A program made the position numbers and the translations under genes. DNA of 64,000 nucleotides. Source: an uncultured bacterium. Its GTDB lineage: Bacteria; Hinthialibacterota; Hinthialibacteria; OLB16. Location of the stretch: the NCBI GenBank assembly GCA_964481775.1, contig CAYZUX010000002.1, positions 20,221-84,220 on the forward strand, read 5' to 3'. Numbering within the stretch: the stretch's first letter is position 1; every line of letters begins with the position of its first letter. This document shows positions 3,854-51,307 of this stretch, one piece after another. The notes below the pieces were generated by a model. It saw only the letters and a list, made by a program, of their open reading frames with translations, searched no databases and was not told where the DNA came from.

Positions 3854-3890
3854 GATCAAAATCTCTGTTCTCCTTATCCCATAAAAACCG

Positions 3891-4628
3891 ATGATGGGTG
3901 AAGCCAAACGTCTCAACAGACCCTGGATGCTCAAACGCCTCCAAGCTCATCTGCAACGCCAAGGGATTCCCCGTATTCAAATGTTCGTGATGGTCTCAGG
4001 AACAGCTTTGGCTGGATTTCTCTCCTCGGTTCTGTTCTTGCGTCTGGGTCTCCATTCCATGTGGCTGCGCTATGGACTGTCAGTGGTGACAGCCTATGGC
4101 GTCTTTCTCACATTCTTATGGTTCTGGGTGATTTATTATCGTGGGAAGCTTTCTTCCTCTCTGGATGGGGGTGATCTGCTGGACCTGACTGATGGAGTGT
4201 GTCAACTTTTTTCCTCAAAATCCTCCGGTGATCCGGTCACTGGTATCAACCAGCTCGCTGAGGATCCAGGCGGTGATATCCCTCTCAAGTCCGCATTCGA
4301 TCTTGAGCTGGATGAAATGCTGGTTCTGCTGGCCTTGCTTGCAGCAATCGGATCCGCATTCGTTTGTTCGATCTACATTATCGCCATTGCACCTGTGCTT
4401 CTGGCTGAGATGATGCTGGATGGTGTCCTTGGAGTGGCTTTGTATCAACGTCTTAAGAAAATCGACCAACATTATTGGCTGGAATCCGCGTTCACGCGGA
4501 CCTGCTTTCCATTCCTCTGGGTTTTGTTCTTTTTCATAATCACTGGGGCAGTTCTTCACTGGTATGCTCCAGAGGCCTTGTCGATTGGCGGTGTCTGGCA
4601 TCATTATCTTTCCGACAACAACAAATAA
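3891..4628 (+). CDS. Uncharacterised 4-TM membrane protein
   Basis: ORF 37 nt downstream of the previous gene on the same strand, with four hydrophobic helices. No recognisable motif. Confidence 0.45.
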   Translation: MMGEAKRLNRPWMLKRLQAHLQRQGIPRIQMFVMVSGTALAGFLSSVLFLRLGLHSMWLRYGLSVVTAYGVFLTFLWFWVIYYRGKLSSSLDGGDLLDLTDGVCQLFSSKSSGDPVTGINQLAEDPGGDIPLKSAFDLELDEMLVLLALLAAIGSAFVCSIYIIAIAPVLLAEMMLDGVLGVALYQRLKKIDQHYWLESAFTRTCFPFLWVLFFFIITGAVLHWYAPEALSIGGVWHHYLSDNNK

Positions 4629-7996: not shown

Positions 7997-10099
7997 ATGT
8001 CTGAAAAAGAGTCGGAAACGGAAATTCTGCTCAGGCAGGCAATCCGGCACCATCAGAAAGGACAGGTCGATGCCGCCGAAGCTCTTTACCAACGTATCCT
8101 GAATAGCAATCCTCAACACCCTGATGCGCTGCATCTCCTGGGAATCATCCACCATGGCAAGGGGGATTATCAAAAGTCTCTCGAACTCATTGGCCAGGCA
8201 GTCATACTCAGACCTCACCTCGCCAGTTTCCAGAACAGTTTGGGAAATACGCTGCTCAGCCTGAAGAATTATGAAGAAGCTCGTAAATGTTATGAACAGG
8301 CACTCTTGATTCAACCAGATTATCCTGATGCACTCAGTAACCTGGCCCACCTGGAGTATCTCTGTCATCATGATCCTGCAGCTGAAGTTCTTTACAGGAA
8401 AGTCATAGAAATTCAACCCGGGAAGGCAGAAGCCTTCTTTCAGCTTGGCCGAGTTCTTTTCCGTCTTGGAAAATTGAGTCAGGCTGCGGAGGCCTTTGGC
8501 AGTTCCATCGCCCTGCGCCCCAATCACTCAGACTCCTATCTGCAGTTGGCGATGGTGCTACATGCGCTTGGGATGAACAGGGAAATTGTCATCATCCTGC
8601 GCCGGCTGATGGAATTTGACCGGAATAATCCAAAAGCCTGGACTTATCTGACGAGTGCTTATGAGACATTGACACAGTATGTGGATGCACTCAATTGCAT
8701 CCAGGAAGCGGAGGGTCTCTTTCCCAATGAACCCATCGTGATTCGTGAGCTCGGGAACGTATATTACGCACTGGGGGATCTTGAGAGGGCCAGGGAGTCA
8801 GTCCTCAAAGCCTTGGAGATCAATCCCAATCTCCCGGAGACCTATTCACAGCTGCTCTTTATTCAGACCCATTCCCCCGATGTATCCCCCGAGGAACAAT
8901 TCCGTGAACATCGTGCCTGGGCGGATCGTTTTGAGGCGCCGTATCTCGGATTAACCCCTGTGTTCCCCAATTCCCCTGAACCCGAAAGAAAACTCCGTAT
9001 CGGGTACGTTTCCCCTGACTTCAAAAAACATTCTGTGGCCTATTTTATCGAACCTGTTCTCATGTCGCATGATACCAGTCAATATGAAACATATTGTTAC
9101 ATGAGTTCCGCCTTCCGAGATAAAACCACCGAACGGATTCAATCAGTGGCAAGCCATTGGAGATCGATTGCGGGAGTTCCCGATGAAGGAGTCCTGGAGA
9201 TCCTCCGGGAGGATCAGCCTGACATTCTTGTAGATTTGTCCGGACATACCTCTCAAAACCGGCTTCCCCTTTTTGCCAGGAGAGCAGCCCCGATCCAGGT
9301 TGCCTGGATCGGTTATCCGAACACCACTGGCATGACCCACATGGACTACCGCCTGGTGGATAAATGGACCGACCCGGAGGGTATTGCAGATGATTTTCAT
9401 AGCGAAAAACTAATCCGCTTACCGCATGGTTTCTCGGTGTACCTCCCCCCATCTGACAGTCCCGCTCCGGTGGAAGAACTACCGGCGGATGAAAGAGGTT
9501 GGATCCTGTTCGCCTCCTTCAACAACCTTCCCAAAATCAACGATCGCGTGGTCGAAACATGGTCGGCCATTTTGAATCGTGTCCCCGGCTCGCGCCTGCT
9601 GATTAAGTGTAAGCAGATGGGGGATGAAGCCACCCGGAAAGTGGTCGCCAGCCGTTTCGCCAAATGGGGCATTTCCGAGGGGCGTATCTTGAACATGTCA
9701 TATGTTGCGGAAACCGCCGGTCATCTTGAAGCCTATAACCAGGTGGACATCGGCCTGGACACCTTTCCTTTCAATGGCGCCACGACCACCCATGAGGCCG
9801 TGTGGATGGGAGTTCCCGTAATTACTCTCGCTGGGGAGCGCCATGCCGGGAGAGTTGGGGTGAGTATCCTCAACCGCCTTGGTATGCCGGAGCTGATCGC
9901 TGATACCCGGGAAGAATATATCCAGATTGCCGTGGATCTGGCTCATGACCGGGACAGGCTGCGAAAACTTCGGACCGGAATGCGCCAGCGGGTTCTTTCC
10001 TCAAGCCTGGTGGACAAGGTCCTGATTACCCGATCGGTCGAGGAAGCGTACCGGAAGATGTGGCGGGAATGGTGCACTTTGGAGAGGCAGTTGGCGTAG
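7997..10099 (+). CDS. TPR-repeat protein with C-terminal GT41 (O-GlcNAc-transferase/SPINDLY-like) glycosyltransferase domain
   Basis: N-terminal tandem TPR motifs (AEALYQRILNSNPQHPDALHLLGIIHHGKGDYQKS...). The C-terminal half carries GT41-like RIGYVSPDFKKHSVAYF, then VAWIGYPNTTG and FNGATTTHEAVWMGVPV. Confidence 0.8.
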   Translation: MSEKESETEILLRQAIRHHQKGQVDAAEALYQRILNSNPQHPDALHLLGIIHHGKGDYQKSLELIGQAVILRPHLASFQNSLGNTLLSLKNYEEARKCYEQALLIQPDYPDALSNLAHLEYLCHHDPAAEVLYRKVIEIQPGKAEAFFQLGRVLFRLGKLSQAAEAFGSSIALRPNHSDSYLQLAMVLHALGMNREIVIILRRLMEFDRNNPKAWTYLTSAYETLTQYVDALNCIQEAEGLFPNEPIVIRELGNVYYALGDLERARESVLKALEINPNLPETYSQLLFIQTHSPDVSPEEQFREHRAWADRFEAPYLGLTPVFPNSPEPERKLRIGYVSPDFKKHSVAYFIEPVLMSHDTSQYETYCYMSSAFRDKTTERIQSVASHWRSIAGVPDEGVLEILREDQPDILVDLSGHTSQNRLPLFARRAAPIQVAWIGYPNTTGMTHMDYRLVDKWTDPEGIADDFHSEKLIRLPHGFSVYLPPSDSPAPVEELPADERGWILFASFNNLPKINDRVVETWSAILNRVPGSRLLIKCKQMGDEATRKVVASRFAKWGISEGRILNMSYVAETAGHLEAYNQVDIGLDTFPFNGATTTHEAVWMGVPVITLAGERHAGRVGVSILNRLGMPELIADTREEYIQIAVDLAHDRDRLRKLRTGMRQRVLSSSLVDKVLITRSVEEAYRKMWREWCTLERQLA

Positions 10100-17870: not shown

Positions 17871-18662
17871 GTGGTTGAGGAAAGGGGGGTATCCAAAACC
17901 ACCCTCGAATCGCTGGTCCCACAAGAGGGATACAAAGTTGATTCTGTTCCTGGCTATTTTGAGGCTCTTTATAGAATCTCCAGGGAACGTTTTGATATCG
18001 TCCTTGTCAGTCAATCCTTGAAAGAAATGAGTGGGATTGAGATCCTTACCACGGCCAAATCGCTCGGTTTTGTTGAAAGCCATGAAAAAGGAACCCGTCC
18101 AGTGTTTATCCTTTTTTGCGAAAAGAGCGATGAGAAGGTCATTCTCCAGGCTTGGTCAGCCGGTTTTCGCCACGTGTTGTCCAGAGGTATCACCTCAGAG
18201 CGGTTTCGTGAGATCGTTGATGAGTGCCTGGGTCCTCCAGAGGAACCATCCATCCAGGAAGAGGTAACCGAGGCAGAGCAGAACCAGGAAGAAGAGGCTG
18301 CTTCAGAAAACGTCTCTCTGCCGATTCATCGTGGTGTTATCAGTCTTCTGCGGATCGAGGATCTGGGAGACACCCTTGTCTATTACCTTGGTGGAAATCT
18401 TAGCAAGGGAAGTGGATACCTGGAGCTGAGAGAATCGATCGTCACCCGCTTGAAGCAAGGAAAGGTCAAACAGGTTGTCCTCAACTGCAGTGAAGTTTCT
18501 TACGTGAACTCCAGTGGAATCGCCGGCCTGGTTTCCCTGAGGAACGAAATTGCGAAGCTGGGAGCGGAGATGTCCCTGATTGCTGCCCAGGAACAAGTCT
18601 TCAATGTATTGGCAAGGCTCGATTTGCTCCGTACCCTCCAATACCGTCCAACCGCCCGCTGA
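17871..18662 (+). CDS. Pseudo-receiver (REC-like, phospho-acceptor Asp replaced) fused to STAS/anti-sigma-factor-antagonist domain
   Basis: N-terminus TILVVEE...DIVLVSQSL resembles CheY KILVVDD...DLVISDWNMP, but the acidic pair and phospho-Asp are substituted. The C-terminal STAS domain keeps the phosphorylatable SSG (VNSSGIAGLV). Start codon is uncertain (GTG at 17871). Confidence 0.55.
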   Translation: MVEERGVSKTTLESLVPQEGYKVDSVPGYFEALYRISRERFDIVLVSQSLKEMSGIEILTTAKSLGFVESHEKGTRPVFILFCEKSDEKVILQAWSAGFRHVLSRGITSERFREIVDECLGPPEEPSIQEEVTEAEQNQEEEAASENVSLPIHRGVISLLRIEDLGDTLVYYLGGNLSKGSGYLELRESIVTRLKQGKVKQVVLNCSEVSYVNSSGIAGLVSLRNEIAKLGAEMSLIAAQEQVFNVLARLDLLRTLQYRPTAR

Positions 18663-37158: not shown

Positions 37159-37217
37159 CGGAACGAGAAACTACTCGTCCCAGCAGATCTACCAGCCGTT
37201 GAAAAAGTGATAACAAT

Positions 37218-37293
37218 GGATTCCCGCTTTCGCGGGAATGACGAAGCGAGCAAGAACATTCGGAAATCGTCATTCCCGCGAAAGCGGGAATCC
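37218..37293. repeat. Perfect 27-bp inverted repeat (22-nt spacer); each arm is itself a sub-palindrome (cruciform-capable element)
   Basis: ggattcccgctttcgcgggaatgacga at 37218-37244 is the exact reverse complement of tcgtcattcccgcgaaagcgggaatcc at 37267-37293. Inner hairpin ttcccgc-tttc-gcgggaa. Intergenic between two minus-strand genes. Confidence 0.85.
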
Positions 37294-37346
37294 ACTGCAA
37301 CTCCCCATATTCGGATTCTTCAACGGATTCCGATCATGGAATCAAC

Positions 37347-45291: not shown

Positions 45292-46122
45292 ATGAGACTG
45301 ACCCTGGGACACAGCCCGGATCCTGATGATGCCTTCATGTTCTACGCCCTCGCGAAGGACAAGATCGATCAGCGGGGTTATCAGTTTGAGCACATACTGC
45401 AGGATATCGAGACGCTCAATCGACGCGCGTTGCGTGGCGAGCTCGACATCACCGCCATCTCGGTTCATGCCTATGCCAGCGTCCTCGACAAGTATGCCCT
45501 TCTTCCCAGCGGTTCGAGCATGGGGGATGGATATGGCCCCATGGTGGTGGCGAAAAAACCCGTTATGCTCAGTGATCTTCCAGGTTTGAAAATCTCGATC
45601 CCTGGTGAGATGACCACTGCCTTCCTGGCGCTCAACCTGTGCATCGGAAAGTTTTCGTATGAAATCGTCCCCTTCGACCGGATTTTCGAACACGTGGAGA
45701 GCGGCAAGTCCGATGCGGGGTTGATTATCCACGAGGGCCAGTTGACCTGGGCGGAGCGAGGACTCAATCTGGTAGTCGACTTGGGAGTCTGGTGGCAACA
45801 GGAGACAGGGCTTCCCCTCCCCCTGGGGGCCAATGCGATTCGAAAAGATCTCGGTACAAAGGTGATGAGTGAAGTTTCGGACCTGTTGCACGAGTCGATC
45901 CAGTACAGCCTCGATCACCGTGCCGAAGCGGTGCAACATGCCCTGCAATGGGCACGTGACATGGAGGCCCCTCTTGCCGACAAGTTCGTCGGCATGTATG
46001 TCAACCACTGGACACTGGATTACGGAGCACGCGGAAGAGAGGCAATCAGAGCCCTGTTGCGCGCCGGATATGAAAAAGGGCTCCTCCCCAATCCCGTGGA
46101 ACTGGAGTTTGTGGGGGGGTAG
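45292..46122 (+). CDS. mqnD: 1,4-dihydroxy-6-naphthoate synthase (futalosine pathway)
   Basis: MRLTLGHSPDPDDAFMFYAL...DIETLNRRALRGELDITAISVHAY...LLPSGSSMGDGYGPMVVAKKP...LIIHEGQLTW match MqnD rather than MqnA. Confidence 0.8.
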   Translation: MRLTLGHSPDPDDAFMFYALAKDKIDQRGYQFEHILQDIETLNRRALRGELDITAISVHAYASVLDKYALLPSGSSMGDGYGPMVVAKKPVMLSDLPGLKISIPGEMTTAFLALNLCIGKFSYEIVPFDRIFEHVESGKSDAGLIIHEGQLTWAERGLNLVVDLGVWWQQETGLPLPLGANAIRKDLGTKVMSEVSDLLHESIQYSLDHRAEAVQHALQWARDMEAPLADKFVGMYVNHWTLDYGARGREAIRALLRAGYEKGLLPNPVELEFVGG

Positions 46123-46141: not shown

Positions 46142-46235
46142 CCCCCCACCCCACCCTCCCCCGCAAGGGGGGAGGAGATGTGTGAACTGTTATCTTCTTT
46201 TGTTTTCCTCCCCCCTTGCAGGGTAGGGTGGGGGG
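46142..46235. repeat. GC-rich nested palindromic element A (REP-like) between mqnD and rph
   Basis: Outer arms ccccccaccccaccct / agggtagggtgggggg (1 mismatch). Inner hairpin ctccccc-gcaag-gggggag. Confidence 0.7.
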
Positions 46236-46260
46236 ATAGAAAAACTGAAATGGAGACTCC

Positions 46261-46989
46261 ATGACTGAGAGATTCGATGGACGCAAACCGGGGGAGATCC
46301 GCCCGGTCAAGATGACGGTGGGGTTCCTGGAAACCGCCGAGGGCTCCTGCTGGATCGAGTTCGGAAAAACCAAAGTGCTCTGCACCGCGAGTTTCCAGGA
46401 CACACTGCCCAGCTGGAAGACAGACAGTTCCGGCTGGGTGACCGCCGAATATGCAATGTTGCCAAAATCTTCGAAAACCCGCATCTCGCGCGAAATCAAT
46501 CGTCCCAAGGGGCGTACCGCCGAAATCCAGCGCCTGATCGGCCGTTCCATCCGTGCGGTGACGGACTTCGATGCGCTCGGAAACCGGATGGTGAACATCG
46601 ATTGTGATGTTATTCAGGCCGATGGCGGCACGCGCACAGCGGCGGTAACCGGCGCGATGGTGGCCTATTGGGAGGCCTGCCACCTGATGGCAACTGCGGG
46701 AGTCTTTGCCCGCTGGCCGATCCGGGAGCTGCTCGCGGCGGTCAGCGTTGGCAAAGTGAATGGTGAAACCCTTGTGGATCTTTGTTACGCCGAGGACAGC
46801 ACCGCTGAGGTAGACATGAATGTGGTTATGACCGAGTCGGGGGAATTTGTGGAGGTCCAAGGGACCGCCGAATCCAAGCCATTCTCAAAGGCTGATCTGG
46901 ATGAGATGCTCTCCCTTGCAGAAGTGGGGATTCGTGAACTGCTGGCTAAACAGGTGGAGGTGTTGAAGGACCTGAAAGCGCCTGTATAA
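46261..46989 (+). CDS. rph: Ribonuclease PH
   Basis: MTERFDGRKPGEIRPVKMTVGFLETAEGSCWIEFGKTKVLCTASF...TRISREINRPKGRTAEIQRLIGRSIRAV. Confidence 0.95.
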   Translation: MTERFDGRKPGEIRPVKMTVGFLETAEGSCWIEFGKTKVLCTASFQDTLPSWKTDSSGWVTAEYAMLPKSSKTRISREINRPKGRTAEIQRLIGRSIRAVTDFDALGNRMVNIDCDVIQADGGTRTAAVTGAMVAYWEACHLMATAGVFARWPIRELLAAVSVGKVNGETLVDLCYAEDSTAEVDMNVVMTESGEFVEVQGTAESKPFSKADLDEMLSLAEVGIRELLAKQVEVLKDLKAPV

Positions 46990-47012
46990 GGCCGAAAAAA
47001 AACCGGTCAGCT

Positions 47013-47144
47013 GGCCCTGGAGTTGGACTCCAGGGCCAGGGCCTTCTGTGGGAGTTGTACTCCCACAAACCCTAACCTGATCGTAGCTTTCAGCGGAGTT
47101 CAACTCCGCTAAAAGGATTCCGCCCACGAGTGCAACTCGTGGGC
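47013..47144 (+). promoter_or_regulatory. Cluster of four tandem stem-loops sharing GAGT-NNN-ACTC apices in the tyrS leader
   Basis: ggccctggagt-tgg-actccagggcc (47013-47037); gtgggagt-tgt-actcccac (47048-47066); agcggagt-tca-actccgct (47092-47110); gcccacgagt-gca-actcgtgggc (47122-47144). No U-tracts follow. Confidence 0.6.
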
Positions 47145-47169
47145 GAGCTTAATCGCATAAGAGAGACTC

Positions 47170-48441
47170 ATGTCAAACGTCATAGAAACCCTTCAAGAAC
47201 GCGGCTTCATCGAGCGGATCACTGATCCTGAGCTCAGTTCTCTTTCGGAAAAGAAATGTCTCACGGTTTATTGCGGTTTCGACCCGACAGCCGACAGTCT
47301 TCACGCCGGAAATCTGGTGGCAATCCTGGCCCTGTCGCATTTCCAGCGGGCCGGACACAAGCCGATCGCGCTGGTGGGAGGAGCAACAGGGCTGATTGGA
47401 GATCCAAGCGGGAAGAAAGATGAACGCAAGCTCCAGACTCGTGAAATGGTCGAGAGAAATGTCGAGGGAATCAAAAAGGTTTTGGCCAAGTTCCTCCGCT
47501 TCGAGGGAGAAAATGCCGCCATCATTGTCAACAACCATGACTGGATGGGGCCGATCACCTTCCTCGATTTCATTCGTGATATCGGCAAGCATGTCCGCAT
47601 CACCGAGATGCTGGCACGCGAGTCGGTGAAGGCGCGTATCGATTCCGGGGCAGGGATGTCCTTTACCGAGTTCTCCTACCAGCTGCTCCAGGCCTATGAC
47701 TTTTATTATCTCCACAGTCACTATGGTTGTGATTTGCAAATCGGCGGCAGCGACCAGTGGGGCAACATCACGGCGGGAACCGATCTGATTCGTCGCCTGG
47801 GAGGAGAACAGACCTACGGCCTGGTCTGTCCGCTCCTGACCACCTCCTCCGGTCAGAAGTTCGGTAAATCGGAACAGGGCGCGATCTGGCTCACTGCGGA
47901 CCGTACCAGCCCCTACCAGTTCTACCAGTACTGGATCCGTACCGAGGATGCCGATGTGGGGCGTTTCCTGCGGATGTTCACCTTCCTGCCCCTGGCGGAG
48001 ATCGAGCAGCTGGAACGCCTCACGCAAGAGAAACCGGAAGCCCGCGAGGCCCAGAAGAAACTGGCCTGGGAAATCACCTGCCTGGTGCATGGTGAGGAGG
48101 AGGCCAAGGCCGCGCTCAAAGCCAGCGAGGCGCTTTTTGGAGGTGAACTCGCGGGGCTTGCAGCGGGTACGATCCTCGATGTGTTCTCGGAAGTACCTTC
48201 GTTTGAACTGGACCGGAAACGTTTGAATGAGGGGCTCTCTCTTGTCGATGCACTTGTTGAAAGCAACCTGGCGGGATCGAAGGGTGAATCCCGCCGTCTC
48301 ATCCAGGGCGGCGGTGTTTACATCAACAACCGCAAGGCCGAGGGAGATGAGAAGATTACTCCAGACTATCTTCTGGATGGTGGACTATTGGTCTTACGAG
48401 TGGGGAAAAAGAAGTATTGCCTGGGTAGGGTGAATGAATGA
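47170..48441 (+). CDS. tyrS: Tyrosine--tRNA ligase
   Basis: HIGH-type motif (LHAGNLV), KMSKS-type KFGKS, C-terminal S4 domain. Confidence 0.95.
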   Translation: MSNVIETLQERGFIERITDPELSSLSEKKCLTVYCGFDPTADSLHAGNLVAILALSHFQRAGHKPIALVGGATGLIGDPSGKKDERKLQTREMVERNVEGIKKVLAKFLRFEGENAAIIVNNHDWMGPITFLDFIRDIGKHVRITEMLARESVKARIDSGAGMSFTEFSYQLLQAYDFYYLHSHYGCDLQIGGSDQWGNITAGTDLIRRLGGEQTYGLVCPLLTTSSGQKFGKSEQGAIWLTADRTSPYQFYQYWIRTEDADVGRFLRMFTFLPLAEIEQLERLTQEKPEAREAQKKLAWEITCLVHGEEEAKAALKASEALFGGELAGLAAGTILDVFSEVPSFELDRKRLNEGLSLVDALVESNLAGSKGESRRLIQGGGVYINNRKAEGDEKITPDYLLDGGLLVLRVGKKKYCLGRVNE

Positions 48442-49087
48442 GTCCACGCTTCTCATCACTGAGATGTACCCCTCGATTCAGGGAGAGAGCACCTGGGCGG
48501 GGTTGTCCTGTTTTTTCATCCGTCTGACCGGCTGCCCCCTGCGGTGCCGTTGGTGCGACACGACCTATGCCTTCCATGGTGGCAAGCGGATGCCCATCCC
48601 GGAGATCCTCGCGGCGGTTGATGCCTCCGGTATCAACCTGGTGGAGGTCACCGGGGGCGAACCCCTGGCGCAACATAATTGTCCCCTTCTCTGCCAGGCT
48701 TTGCTTGATGCAGGAAAGACCGTTCTCATCGAAACCGCTGGGTCTCACCCAATCGAGGTCCTTCCCGAAGGTGTCATCCGGATCATGGATCTCAAGTGCC
48801 CCGGGTCAGGCGAGGTGGAAAAGAACTTGTGGAGCAACCTCGATCACCTCAATGAACGTGATGAAGTCAAGTTTGTCATCTCATGCCGCGAGGATTTCGA
48901 GTGGGCCAGGGATGTAGTCAGAGAGCACCGTCTTGAGAGGCGGGTCCATGCTGTGCTCTTTTCGCCTGTTTTTGGAGAAATCGACATGGCGGAGCTGGTG
49001 GCATGGATCCTCGCGGACAAGTTGCCGGTGCGTTTCCAGTTGCAGATGCACAAGTTCATCTGGGAACCCACACGGAAAGGGGTGTAA
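48434..49087 (+). CDS. queE: 7-carboxy-7-deazaguanine synthase (radical SAM)
   Basis: [33 protein letters not shown]. Overlaps the tyrS stop by 8 nt. Confidence 0.9.
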
Positions 49088-49142
49088 CCTCACCCCTCTG
49101 TCCCCTTCTCCTCGCGGGAGAGGGGGACAGGGGGGTAAGGTT
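49086..49142. repeat. GC-rich nested palindromic element B between queE and queC
   Basis: aacctcacccctctgtcccc / ggggacaggggggtaaggtt flank the inner hairpin ttctcctc-gcg-ggagag. Confidence 0.7.
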
Positions 49143-49160
49143 ATTAATAAGGAGCCTTAT

Positions 49161-49850
49161 ATGAAAGCCGTTGTGCTTCTCTCCGGTGGTCTGGATTCCG
49201 CCACAGTCCTCGCGCTCGCTCGACAAGAGGGGCGTGAATGTTATGCCCTTTCGTTCCGGTATGGCCAACGGCATGTGTATGAACTCGAGGCCGCCGGGAA
49301 AGTCGCGCGCTCGCTTGGAGCCAAGGAGCATCTTGTCTTCGATATCCCTCTGAACCGTTGGGGCGGATCGGCGTTGACCTCGGAAATCGAGGTTCCCAAG
49401 GATCGTACGGGCGACGAGATGTCCCATGGCATCCCGATCACCTATGTCCCCGCGCGCAACACGGTTTTTCTCTCACTCGCATTGGCCTGGTCCGAGGTAT
49501 TGGAGGCGGGTGAAGTCTGGATCGGGGTGAATGCGCTGGATTATTCCGGATACCCCGATTGCCGTCCGGAATTCATCCAGGCATTCCAGGAGGTGGCACG
49601 TCTGGGAACCAGGACTGGGGTGGAGGGAACACTCCCCCTCCAGATCCGTGCACCACTCCAGTTTCTCACCAAGGCGGAGATCATCCGGACCGGCACAGAC
49701 CTTGGGGTGGATTACAGTCTCACCCGTTCCTGCTATGACCCACCCTCAGCGGATTTGCACTGCGGACACTGTGATTCCTGCCTGCTGCGCAAGAAAGGTT
49801 TCATCGAGGCGGGAGTTGAGGATCCAACCTCTTATGCCAGACAGAGATAA
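49161..49850 (+). CDS. queC: 7-cyano-7-deazaguanine synthase
   Basis: [18 protein letters not shown] (PP-loop) and C-terminal Zn site [29 protein letters not shown]. The track start at 48933 is discarded. Confidence 0.9.
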
Positions 49851-49990
49851 AAACAGGGGCCGGAATATTTATTTGGCCACAAACTGTTGGTCGGAACGGT
49901 ACAGGATGTCCCCATAACTTCGAGTCCCATTGGTCGGGCTATAGGGTGTTGTGTAAGGGGTTTCCCGCAGAGCATCAGGGCCATAACCGA

Positions 49991-50596
49991 TCAGAATATA
50001 GGCATCCTGACGGATAGGAGACACCATCCGGGTTCCAGGTGCGCAATCCGGTCCATCGGGTCTCCAGCATCCAAAGACACCAAGTAATCGCTTTTGCTCA
50101 GTTTCATGTCAGCTGCTTCACGGTCAATGTACATGTAGGAAACAGGTTTCTTGATATCCTCCGTGATCAGAGACTTGTCCCCATCAATGAAAAATGGATC
50201 TGGCGGGACTGTGCTCATATACTTTACGGGGGTTGTCAGCGGGGTGAAGAGGCCCGAGGTTCCACCTCTCCAATCGCCCCGGTGCCAGCTGCAACAGGCT
50301 TTGAAGGATGGGCTGGGATACATGGGGCCGCCCCGGAAACGGGCCTGGACGATCTGCATGTTGTCATCATCCCAGTAGTCCACCAACAGGACTCCTCGTT
50401 CCAGCCGCAACGATTCGATGGCGGTAGCCAGGCTTTTCATGTCCGAGCTTTCCCGGACCACCTTGGCCCGTGTCTGAGCCTCAAGAAAATTGGGCAATGC
50501 GATCCCGATCAGGATCAGGATGATGGCGATGACAATGAGGAGCTCGATCAGTGTGAACGCGCGTGTGTTGAGATGGAGCAGATGATTCCTGGGCAT
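49991..50596 (-). CDS. Prepilin-type N-terminal cleavage/methylation domain pseudopilin (GspG-like)
   Basis: FTLIELLIVIAIILILIGIALPNFLEAQTRAKVV matches the type II secretion major pseudopilin N-terminus. Confidence 0.7.
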   Translation of the reverse strand: MPRNHLLHLNTRAFTLIELLIVIAIILILIGIALPNFLEAQTRAKVVRESSDMKSLATAIESLRLERGVLLVDYWDDDNMQIVQARFRGGPMYPSPSFKACCSWHRGDWRGGTSGLFTPLTTPVKYMSTVPPDPFFIDGDKSLITEDIKKPVSYMYIDREAADMKLSKSDYLVSLDAGDPMDRIAHLEPGWCLLSVRMPIF

Positions 50597-50684
50597 GCTT
50601 GGACCTGACCTTCCCTTCCCTGTGGTAAATTGAGTATACCGAGCACAAGTTAAGGCTGTCTATAGCCAGAATGGGAGGCGAAAA

Positions 50685-50782
50685 AAAGACCTCACCCCCC
50701 TGCCCCCCTCTCCCGCTGGGCGAGGGGGGAGACGTTCCCCCTTCTCCTCATGGGAGAGGAGGGCAAGGGGGTGAGGTCTTCT
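50685..50782. repeat. GC-rich nested palindromic element C between the pseudopilin gene and ilvN
   Basis: Outer arms agacctcacccccctgccc / gggcaagggggtgaggtct (1 mismatch). Inner ttctcctc-atg-ggagagg, related to element B. Confidence 0.7.
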
Positions 50783-50797
50783 GTTACTCCAGCAACC

Positions 50798-51307
50798 TCA
50801 GGTCAGTTCTTTCCCGCGGGCAATGATCAACTTACCCGAACGGATCATCTCGATGATGCCATACTTGTTGAGCATCCGTTCCATGGCATCGAGTTTCTCC
50901 GAATCGCCGGTGATTTCGACAATCAGGCTCTCATCGCCGATATCGACTGTCTTGGCACGAAAAACATCCACGATCTGGAGAATTTCGGTCCGGTTGCCGA
51001 CATCGGCCCTGATCTTGAACAAAGCCAGCTCACGGACCACCGACTCCTCACCGGTGTGTTCAGCCACACGAACCACATCCACCAGCTTATCCAGCTGCTT
51101 GATGATCTGATCCAGCACGGCAGGGTCACCCTTGCTGACAATCGTCATCCGGGAGAAGCCCTCGTAATGCGAGGAGCTGACCACCAGCGAGTCGATATTA
51201 TAGGCACGCCGGGCGAATACCTGGGCCACCCGGCTCAAGACGCCCGGACGGTCATGGACATAGACGCTGATTGTGTGCTTGCCGTTTTGTGAGATTGTCG
51301 TTTCCAT
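50798..51307 (-). CDS. ilvN: Acetolactate synthase small (regulatory) subunit
   Basis: HTISVYVHDRPGVLSRVAQVFARRAYNIDSLVV (ACT domain). Confidence 0.9.
   Translation of the reverse strand: METTISQNGKHTISVYVHDRPGVLSRVAQVFARRAYNIDSLVVSSSHYEGFSRMTIVSKGDPAVLDQIIKQLDKLVDVVRVAEHTGEESVVRELALFKIRADVGNRTEILQIVDVFRAKTVDIGDESLIVEITGDSEKLDAMERMLNKYGIIEMIRSGKLIIARGKELT

Follow-up and report, generated by a model that had tools for sequence, protein, structure and literature searches.

The window (the whole stretch of DNA that was analysed, 64 kb long) contains three GC-rich nested palindromes, A, B and C, which are on balance probably gene-less, REPIN-like mobile palindromic repeats derived from repeats that bracket genes of the DUF559 nuclease family. 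Among close relatives, units of these repeats are acquired, lost or swapped, and they land in intergenic or intercistronic DNA, typically right after a stop codon.

Structure and position of the three elements

The three palindromes lie where the first-pass annotation had placed them (A at 46142–46235, B at 49086–49142 and C at 50688–50778), each starting 0–21 nt after a stop codon. The long imperfect inverted repeats with inner hairpins that it described are borne out by arm alignment and folding: A consists of two inverted copies of a ~30-nt unit (arms 46149–46176 and 46206–46233, 93% complementary, spacer 29 nt), B is a single long hairpin (arms 49085–49111 and 49117–49143, 89% complementary), and C has arms of 50 nt (50681–50730 and 50736–50785, 80% complementary) with an inner hairpin in each. 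The single-strand fold z-scores against dinucleotide shuffles are −5.2 for A, −7.1 for B, and −8.2 and −8.7 for the two strands of C (0 of 200 shuffles equally stable). The sequence said to be common to B and C is found as 40-nt stretches of 80–85% identity, and the A hairpin CCCCCGCAAGGGGGG is present as described. The gene neighbours (mqnD and rph for A, queE and queC for B, a pilin-like gene and ilvN for C) agree with Pfam, the pilin being N-methyl pilin-like. One correction concerns orientation: ilvN and the pilin-like gene run on the minus strand, which places C downstream of ilvN and upstream of the promoter-like site of the pilin gene. The features are as follows (L004, L005 and L296 denote loci of relatives).

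45292–46122, plus strand: mqnD (PF02621), stop 19 nt before A
46142–46155, plus strand: A, left C-rich tail CCCCCCACCCCACC, which fits the tail consensus ACCCCCC(A/T)CCCCAACC of 144 A-type instances
46156–46174, plus strand: A, left hairpin CTCCCCC-GCAA-GGGGGAG with a GNRA-type loop, an exact match to CTCCCCCGCAAGNGGGGAGG
46175–46207, plus strand: A, spacer, containing GTGTGAAC, the reverse complement of GTTCACAC in the spacers of the L004 copies
46208–46235, plus strand: A, right unit, inverted: hairpin remnant CTCCCCCCTTGCAGGG (5 nt deleted) and G-rich tail TAGGGTGGGGGG
46261–46989, plus strand: rph (Pfam), start 25 nt after A
48434–49087, plus strand: queE-like radical SAM gene, whose stop overlaps the start of B
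49086–49101, plus strand: B, left tail AACCTCACCCCTCTGT, a match to the CCTCACCCCNCTGNCCCCNTCTCC family, beginning inside the queE stop TAA (49085–49087)
49102–49125, plus strand: B, inner hairpin CCCCTTCTCC-TCGC-GGGAGAGGGG, from folding
49126–49142, plus strand: B, right G-rich tail GACAGGGGGGTAAGGTT, the end of the palindrome, 18 nt before the queC ATG (49161)
49161–49850, plus strand: queC (PF06508)
50633–50662, minus strand: sigma-70-like promoter TAGACA-18-TATACT of the pilin-like gene, outside the repeat and conserved in L004
50681–50687, minus strand: U7 tract (A7 on the plus strand), directly after the C hairpin on the ilvN strand
50688–50729, no strand assigned: C, left unit, tail GACCTCACCCCCCTG and hairpin CCCCCCTCTCCCGCTGGGCGAGGGGGG, an exact match to the B/C search pattern
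50730–50736, no strand assigned: C, spacer AGACGTT
50737–50778, no strand assigned: C, right unit, inverted: hairpin CCCCCTTCTCCTCATGGGAGAGGAGGG and tail CAAGGGGGTGAGGTC
50798–51307, minus strand: ilvN, stop (50798–50800) about 19 nt upstream (minus strand) of C

The unit common to the three elements consists of a hairpin made of C and G only, preceded by a C-rich tail; the tail is CCCCCCACCCC... in A and CCTCACCCC... in B and C. A matches the A-core search pattern exactly, as B and C do the B/C pattern. Units occur as singles, as closed palindromes (B-like) and as inverted doublets (A- and C-like); A and C, with two inverted units each, have a REPIN-like doublet architecture, and the L004 copies have a common spacer sequence. 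In an Rfam search no family reached its gathering score with any of the elements, the sub-threshold matches being to generic hairpins (miRNA precursors).

Turnover among relatives and spread across phyla

We compared orthologous intergenic sites, as the first-pass annotation had suggested, in relatives whose TyrRS proteins are 90–91% identical, and observed sites that are filled or empty and occupants that are swapped. For example, the site between mqnD and rph holds an element in the window and in L004 and is empty (21 nt) in L005 and L296. The queE–queC site holds a B-type closed unit in the window, an A-type closed unit in L296, an A-type doublet in L004 and a degenerate C-like doublet in L005; all four occupants differ, and each starts within 5 nt of the stop codon. 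The site between ilvN and the pilin-like gene is occupied by C in the window and in L296 and, in L004, by a plain hairpin unrelated to it; an A doublet between a radical-SAM gene and SpoU is present in L004 alone. The 21 kb of L004 carry four A-type elements whose spacers are homologous (the density in the window is three elements, A, B and C, in 64 kb), and the spacer of A is homologous to the L004 doublet spacers in inverted orientation. In a related MAG (CAZORO01), at least four contigs carry A-type copies, and there is a C-like doublet. No target-site duplication was seen when filled and empty sites were compared.

Within the window CCTCACCCC and CTTCTCCTC occur together at B and C only, so the window by itself gives no genome-wide family; the family is shown through the relatives and public collections. 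The repeat-family claim depended on recurrence of the motif elsewhere, and in both of these sources it clearly recurs. The A core CTCCCCCGCAAGNGGGGAGG is found in at least 120 genome stretches from many phyla (among the matches listed, Alphaproteobacteria, Planctomycetota, Nitrospirota, Chloroflexota, Gemmatimonadota, Deinococcota and Bacteroidota), and the 14-nt tail of these A-type copies, whose consensus given above lies outside the search pattern used, is 69–83% conserved. At least 120 metagenome stretches, their GC contents ranging over 0.36–0.75, contain the B/C arm, a complementary stem lying within 70 nt in 91% of those listed; the 117 B/C instances listed comprise 83 singles, 18 closed units and 16 doublets. 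Copies of the motif are under-represented within long ORFs and over-represented immediately 3' of where ORFs end. The first-pass annotation had not anticipated this conservation, with arms nearly unchanged across many phyla on contigs of 36–75% GC. The near-identity could partly reflect convergence on very stable C/G stems with GNRA loops, which leaves the conserved unpaired tails unexplained.

DUF559 genes beside the repeat units

Among the ORFs clustered near copies of the motif, DUF559 (a Vsr-like nuclease) is the only family tied to it. All 13 DUF559 ORFs in the motif-selected loci (1.6 Mb in total) are directly beside or between inverted units, with a combined null probability of 2e-11. 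In the reverse test, with DUF559 genes picked by protein only, units were found at 14–15 of 16 genes, including E. coli ycjD. Of 12 plasmid-borne DUF559 genes, drawn from five phyla or classes, 10–11 have units at their ends (one of the plasmid sample, from Sphingomonas, sits between sufB and sufC), as do three out of three Bacteroidota genes, two of which form cassettes that follow the trpB stop and precede the trpA start. For at least one cassette, a G-rich tail is at Shine-Dalgarno distance from the start of the next gene. The proteins match PDB 3HRL and Pfam PF04480, and all 28 keep E.DG..H, D..R and the other invariants of the family. The units beside each gene are the lineage's own variant of the repeat (cyanobacterial, Bacteroidota, alphaproteobacterial or E. 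coli), which suggests co-evolution with DUF559. Neither the 64-kb window nor ~120 kb of the relatives' loci contains a DUF559 ORF, and the link comes from other taxa. We found no published account of it; DUF559 genes have been reported to be 14-fold enriched among genes flanked by inverted repeats (PMC9881135).

The repeat flanking E. coli ycjD (CCCCTC.CCCCTCTGGGGAGAGGGTTAGGGTGAGGGG), with a median of 19 copies per E. coli genome, resembles the elements in its G/C hairpin (CCCTCTCCC/GGGAGAGGG) and GGGTGAGGG tail and in being dispersed, and it lies beside a DUF559 gene; it differs in tail-to-hairpin spacing, in sequence variant and in phylum. A BLAST search of element C against E. coli genomes gave no match. 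We believe this repeat to be the one called 'box C' in older E. coli literature.

B is a single unit that a second, inverted tail closes, and A and C are each two inverted units of REPIN design. If the elements derive from DUF559-bracketing repeats, as we favour, the DUF559 nuclease, an EDxHD-type PD-(D/E)XK enzyme, would be the cognate enzyme that recognises and nicks the tail-plus-hairpin unit, with copying or insertion finished by host replication or repair, and the elements of the window would be non-autonomous derivatives, related to it as REPINs are to RAYTs. To our knowledge, DUF559 is a bare nuclease domain of ~110 aa for which neither strand transfer nor any other activity has been demonstrated. 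The association does not give a direction: DUF559 could be a passenger, or a homing gene that targets the repeats. Two opposite arrangements are seen at DUF559 genes, with the tails outermost or next to the gene, and these are not predicted by a single simple transposon model.

DUF559 genes might instead be free-standing homing-type endonuclease genes lodged at the repeat, with a doublet spacer or a unit junction as their homing site, the repeats having spread by other means; we consider this rather unlikely. The gene does lie exactly between or beside units, the arrangement of units varies (in L263 the gene is outside a closed unit), 83 of the 117 listed B/C instances are singles far from any gene, and Vsr-like EDxHD nucleases are known homing endonucleases (PMC3384342, PMC9403480). 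Such enzymes, e.g. I-Bth0305I, share with DUF559 a related fold, related E/D/H/D residues and precise insertion between or within conserved genes, but they have extra DNA-binding domains and no dispersed gene-less palindromic repeats, and their targets are single conserved gene sites rather than multi-copy intergenic palindromes. Lodging of this kind does not explain why the repeats are mobile or why they are conserved across phyla, and the match between flanking units and the lineage's repeat variant suggests co-evolution.

Other origins, local roles and implications

The first-pass annotation likened the elements to REP/BIME repeats and named a REP-associated tyrosine transposase as a possible driver. 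The likeness holds for architecture: both are dispersed families of short hairpin units with frequent inverted doublets, at intergenic or operon-internal sites, present or absent between relatives, and both include a small nuclease-type gene bracketed by inverted units, dispersed gene-less copies and possible side roles as terminators or RNA stabilisers. Membership of the classical REP/BIME–RAYT class is not supported, and mobilisation by a RAYT (an IS200-like Y1 transposase) is very unlikely. The bracketing gene encodes a DUF559 PD-(D/E)XK (Vsr-like) nuclease, not an IS200-like tnpA or other Y1 HUH transposase; no ORF in 1.77 Mb (window plus loci) had a phmmer hit at E≤10 to E. coli RayT, and no transposase family is among the ORFs clustered near the motif. 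The units have no GTAG/CGTC tag but a long (10–16 nt) C-rich tail, CCTCACCCCNCTG or CCCCCC(A/T)CCCC (CCTCACCCC or CCCCCCACCCC in the elements here), an extra GACG...CGTC mini-hairpin being confined to a rare subtype. REP families are normally lineage-specific, whereas A-, B- and C-type sequences are near-identical across phyla.

That the elements are locally evolved, convergent and non-mobile terminators or mRNA-stabilising hairpins is largely refuted as an account of their origin. All three lie just 3' of stop codons, C has the canonical layout of A-tract, hairpin and U7, and a different hairpin occupies its place in L004; but identical arms of 20–24 nt with conserved unpaired tails are found in unrelated taxa, including genomes of 33–42% GC, the L004 spacers are homologous, and some orthologous sites are empty. 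A and B, moreover, have no U-tract and lie 18–25 nt before the next cistron, so that termination there would silence rph and queC.

As a local role, the mRNA-hairpin idea that the first-pass annotation offered as a second possibility fits C, as a stabilising or terminating hairpin; A and B do not fit as terminators. A GC-rich hairpin followed by a U-tract is found at C only, and no U-tract follows A or B. Like a Rho-independent (bidirectional) terminator, C has a GC-rich hairpin bordered by an A-run and a T-run, and it lies in the gap that separates a stop codon from the next promoter; it differs in its stem of ~45 bp, its two inner hairpins and its membership of a mobile repeat family. Because the U7 tract is on the ilvN strand, a T5 run is kept at its position in the L296 ortholog and another hairpin occupies the same place in L004, C, sited between the ilvN stop and the next promoter, probably also serves as the intrinsic terminator of ilvBN, a role that is partly shown. 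A and B, lacking a U-tract, 25 and 18 nt before the next start and in operons in the relatives, must be read through, and would act at most as intercistronic RNA hairpins.

An origin as MITEs of a conventional DDE-transposase IS with GGGGTGAGG-type terminal inverted repeats is extremely improbable: the outer tails of closed and doublet forms do behave as terminal inverted repeats, but filled sites show no target-site duplication, the ORFs near the copies include no recurrent transposase family, no parent IS turned up, and most copies are single units with one tail.

Small palindromic repeats are poorly understood, and we know of no pair with a known enzyme other than REP and RAYT. Here an uncharacterised nuclease family is tied to a REP-like repeat whose sequence is near-identical in a candidate-phylum MAG and in Bradyrhizobium, Deinococcus, cyanobacteria and Bacteroidota. 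In practice, the repeats break metagenome assemblies, as seen from the many DUF559 genes on contigs of <2 kb, and cause spurious extensions of ORFs that run into them, with repeat-encoded peptides such as PPSLTLPRKGGGN. More tentatively than for A, B and C themselves, we suggest that DUF559 and the C-rich-tail/GC-hairpin repeats may form an unrecognised, domain-wide bacterial nuclease/repeat system parallel to RAYT/REPIN, which would be driven by the nuclease acting on hairpin or cruciform DNA and would insert just after stops; this would also account for the origin of repeats that have long lacked an explanation, among them the one next to ycjD in E. coli. Should the link be causal, an enzyme would be named for a second and far more widespread class of palindromic repeats, DUF559 (a large family of unknown function) and E. 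coli YcjD would gain a testable function, and the GC-rich islands inside operons, even of AT-rich genomes, would be explained.

Structure and setting of elements A, B and C

The three GC-rich nested palindromes that the first-pass annotation had described between housekeeping genes are confirmed at the positions it gave, and Pfam supports its identification of their neighbors (mqnD/rph, queE-like/queC and pilin-like/ilvN). The elements and their building units (window coordinates) are:

Element A, 46142-46235, between mqnD and rph: a ~30-nt unit as an inverted pair, spacer 29 nt, arm complementarity 93%; 25 nt separate it from the rph start
Element B, 49086-49142, between queE-like and queC: one long hairpin, arm complementarity 89%; 18 nt separate it from the queC start
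Element C, 50688-50778 (pairing extends to 50681-50785), between the pilin-like gene and ilvN, both on the minus strand: arms of 50 nt, complementarity 80%, each with an inner hairpin of its own
A unit: CCCCCCACCCCACC followed by CTCCCCC-GCAA-GGGGGAG
B/C unit: (A)CCTCACCCCNCTGN followed by CCCC(C/T)TCTCC-loop-GGAGAGGGG

All three are made from a single kind of unit, in which a C-rich tail precedes a hairpin almost purely of C and G: B is a single unit closed by an inverted second tail, and A and C each consist of two units in inverted orientation. The sequence sharing already noticed between B and C amounts to 40-nt stretches with 80-85% identity. Single-strand folds of the three elements are 5 to 8.7 SD more stable than those of dinucleotide shuffles. 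Each element starts 0-21 nt after a stop codon, and the queE TAA itself belongs to the B palindrome (TAACC...GGTTA). Elsewhere in the 64-kb window the shared words are never found together. At 37214-37297 there is another nested palindrome, unrelated to these three, with two inverted copies of CAATGGATTCCCGC-TTTC-GCGGGAATGACGA (arms 31 nt, 97% complementary, spacer 22 nt; fold z = -11); its ATTCCCGCGAAAGCGGGAAT hairpin is one that we take to resemble repeats from Betaproteobacteria and Neisseria.

As both of its neighbors are on the minus strand, C follows ilvN and precedes the pilin gene's promoter-like site, and a U7 tract directly follows it on the ilvN strand. Judged by sequence, C is arranged like a bidirectional intrinsic terminator, and it separates the ilvN stop from a promoter-like site that is conserved. 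Among syntenic loci of relatives, the L296 ortholog retains the T-run; a different hairpin is found at that place in L004. No U-tract follows A or B, and because of this and of their location inside what in relatives are tight operons, these two must be transcribed through. A simple terminator scan of the window listed none of the three elements, its stem and loop limits being too narrow for them.

Turnover in relatives and spread across phyla

A, B and C belong to palindromic repeats that are mobile and rapidly exchanged, and represent two variants of a class that crosses phyla. The organism is known from metagenomes only, and its TyrRS is closest to those of MAGs named Candidatus Omnitrophica. 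We compared the window with syntenic regions of relatives (TyrRS identity: L296, 91%; L004, 90%; L005, 90%; L006, 77%).

Occupancy of intergenic sites in the window and in syntenic loci of relatives
mqnD/rph: window, A doublet; L004, A-type doublet; L296 and L005, empty (21 nt); L006, genes overlap
queE/queC: window, B-type closed unit; L296, A-type closed unit; L004, A-type doublet; L005, degenerate C-like doublet; L006, no synteny
ilvN/pilin: window, C; L296, near-identical C; L004, plain unrelated hairpin; L005 and L006, no synteny
radical-SAM/SpoU: L004, A-type doublet; window and L296, empty

At queE/queC the occupant never starts more than 5 nt from the stop codon, and no target duplications were seen at filled versus empty sites. 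Four A-type elements are found in 21 kb of L004; at least three of the L004 spacers share homology with each other and also, inverted, with the spacer of window A, and the whole doublet is therefore the repeated entity. The window A spacer (46175-46207) matches the L004 spacers at 3890-3925, 9030-9062 and 18128-18160 solely as the reverse complement (GTGTGAAC versus GTTCACAC), which suggests either a flip between the inverted arms or insertion in the opposite orientation. In the related MAG CAZORO01 (GC 0.53-0.54), A-type copies are present on at least four contigs, together with a C-like doublet. The motif, whose failure to recur the first-pass annotation had named as counting against its reading, does recur in relatives.

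A scan for the A-type core (exact pattern CTCCCCCGCAAGNGGGGAGG, one genome per species) matched at least 120 stretches, a count that by itself could be inflated in GC-rich genomes. Carriers among the matches listed include Bradyrhizobium, Devosia, Xanthobacteraceae and other Alphaproteobacteria, as well as Planctomycetota, Nitrospirota, Chloroflexota, Gemmatimonadota, Deinococcus and Bacteroidota. The 14-nt tail, which is outside the search pattern, is 69-83% conserved per position in 144 distinct instances (consensus ACCCCCC(T/A)CCCCAACC), and we consider this conservation, not the number of matches, to be the telling point for the spread of the A type. For the B/C-type arm (pattern CCTCACCCCNCTGNCCCCNTCTCC, metagenome contigs) at least 120 stretches matched, and the GC of their contigs ranges from 0.36 to 0.75. 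The complementary GGAGAGGGGG is found at most 70 nt downstream in 91% of 117 instances, with a freely variable loop; 83 of these instances are singles, 18 are closed palindromes (B-like) and 16 are doublets (C-like). Copies are rarer inside long ORFs and commoner immediately 3' of ORF ends. On one metagenome contig (L213, 45% GC), at least six B/C-type units follow each other in tandem with a period of 75 nt (CCTCACCCCCCTGCCCCCCTCTCC TTGAAAAAAGAAGAGGGGGAGGGATGG...). Rfam at permissive E-values gave no family, only generic sub-threshold hairpin (miRNA) matches; BLAST of C gave no match in E. coli genomes and one weak match in plasmids, the low-complexity filter probably hiding most matches in these two BLAST searches.

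DUF559 genes bracketed by the repeats

When all ORFs within 2.5 kb of motif copies were clustered, the biggest groups consisted of common housekeeping-type families (e.g. ABC transporter components), and there was no recurrent transposase family. The sole family tied to the motif is a protein of ~110-130 aa, encoded directly beside or between copies of both repeat types; it is assigned to DUF559 (Pfam PF04480; E = 3e-41 to 1e-28) and matches the structural-genomics entry 3HRL. The motif-selected loci (1.6 Mb) contain 13 DUF559 ORFs, every one of which adjoins a motif copy (combined probability under random placement in the same loci: 2e-11). Two bracket arrangements are found: tails outermost, [tail-hairpin]-gene-[hairpin'-tail'], in B/C-type loci and Deinococcus, and tails adjoining the gene, [hairpin'-tail']-ATG...gene...-[tail-hairpin], in many Alphaproteobacteria.

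In the reverse test, with DUF559 genes picked by protein similarity only, units were present at the gene ends in 10-11 out of 12 plasmid- or chromid-borne genes (from Azospirillum, Deinococcus, Neisseria, Sphingomonas, Synechocystis, Sinorhizobium, Photobacterium, Methylobacterium, Picosynechococcus, Pseudanabaena, Qipengyuania and Pseudomonas). The same holds for three out of three Bacteroidota genes, one of them in a genome region of 33% GC. The sequence of the flanking unit is lineage-specific (e.g. GCCCCCCTAGC followed by CCCCCAATTCTGGGGGG in cyanobacteria). The cross-phylum repeat class brackets DUF559 nuclease genes in many other taxa. E.DG..H, D..R and other family invariant residues are kept in 28 DUF559 genes, which argues for active, selected nucleases.

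In two different Bacteroidota genomes (L262, 1441-1990; L263, 1386-1882) a DUF559 cassette lies exactly between the trpB stop and the trpA start, with a unit starting directly after the trpB TGA; the unit arrangements differ between the two, and in L262 the far G-rich tail GGGTGAGGTAAAACATG is spaced from the trpA ATG as a Shine-Dalgarno sequence would be. A Sphingomonas parapaucimobilis plasmid (L252; NZ_CP155753.1, 112589-112999) carries a DUF559 gene with inverted tail-plus-hairpin units in its suf operon, between sufB and sufC. The E. coli K-12 gene ycjD runs into CACCCTCTCCC-TGAAAGA-GCGAGGGGG, and CCCCTCGCCCCTCTGGGGAGAGGGTTAGGGTGAGGGG, with a median of 19 copies per E. coli genome, is found ~170 nt beyond it. 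The repeat beside ycjD is probably the one that publications of the 1990s called 'box C'.

In E. coli K-12 (L248, 5290-5370, minus strand) a partial second ycjD 3' end (GGAGACGGTGCTGGAGAATATTC...GAACCG) between two downstream repeat units looks like what is left of a second cassette or of gene conversion. On a Photobacterium sp. GJ3 plasmid (L255), the repeat doublet downstream of the DUF559 gene has the same 34-nt sequence, GAAGCGCGCTCAGATTTGGAACTGGCGCTGGTGT, on both sides; this long direct duplication might be the footprint of an insertion. On a Deinococcus wulumuqiensis plasmid (L250), the 5' part of the gene is seemingly interrupted by a different repeat (cggattccg...ggaatccg type), and the A-type unit at its 3' end is kept, with an extra small hairpin.

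No DUF559 gene was found in DNA of this lineage (the 64-kb window and ~120 kb of relatives' loci), and a homologue search for DUF559 from this lineage gave matches mostly in Bacteroidota. Scans of viral contigs gave 7 and 23 matches; because these are few and no convincing DUF559 gene adjoins them, phage carriage is without evidence. Many DUF559 homologues are on contigs of just 0.5-2 kb, a length that breaks of short-read assemblies at the flanking repeats would be expected to produce.

Relation to known systems

The REP/BIME-type reading of the first-pass annotation stands in part: architecture and population behavior of A, B and C are REP/REPIN-like, but two defining features of that family are lacking: the units have no GTAG/CGTC tag, and no match to E. 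coli RayT was found in the window and loci (1.77 Mb). That the elements are RAYT substrates, as suggested, is unlikely. The DUF559 nuclease would instead be the cognate enzyme of the repeats, and A, B and C may be gene-less derivatives of the DUF559 system, by analogy with REPINs and RAYTs. In a survey of genes flanked by inverted repeats, 'DUF559 domain-containing protein' was 14-fold overrepresented among the predicted targets of inversion (PMC9881135), which fits genes bracketed by inverted units.

The association could also run the other way, the DUF559 gene being a homing-type lodger in the repeats. A classification of PD-(D/E)XK enzymes groups DUF559 with Vsr (PMC3424549), and the EDxHD enzymes resembling Vsr form a well-known family of homing endonucleases (PMC3384342, PMC9403480). 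A simple cut-and-paste transposon is argued against by the two bracket arrangements and the absent target duplications. A G-quadruplex motif is matched by the G-rich arm of the A type, not by that of the B/C type, and pairing with the complementary arm should prevail over it; the FtsK KOPS sequence GGGNAGGG is contained in the arms, but its polarity is cancelled by the palindromic copies; and the tail is too short for Rho rut sites.

In the literature we found neither a description of these repeats nor of a link between DUF559 and repeats. A, B and C are best filed under nuclease-associated palindromic repeats, with the nuclease as their putative cognate enzyme. That a second, domain-wide system is built around DUF559 is a possibility that we take seriously without quite favoring it; if true, it would be the real interest of the finding.
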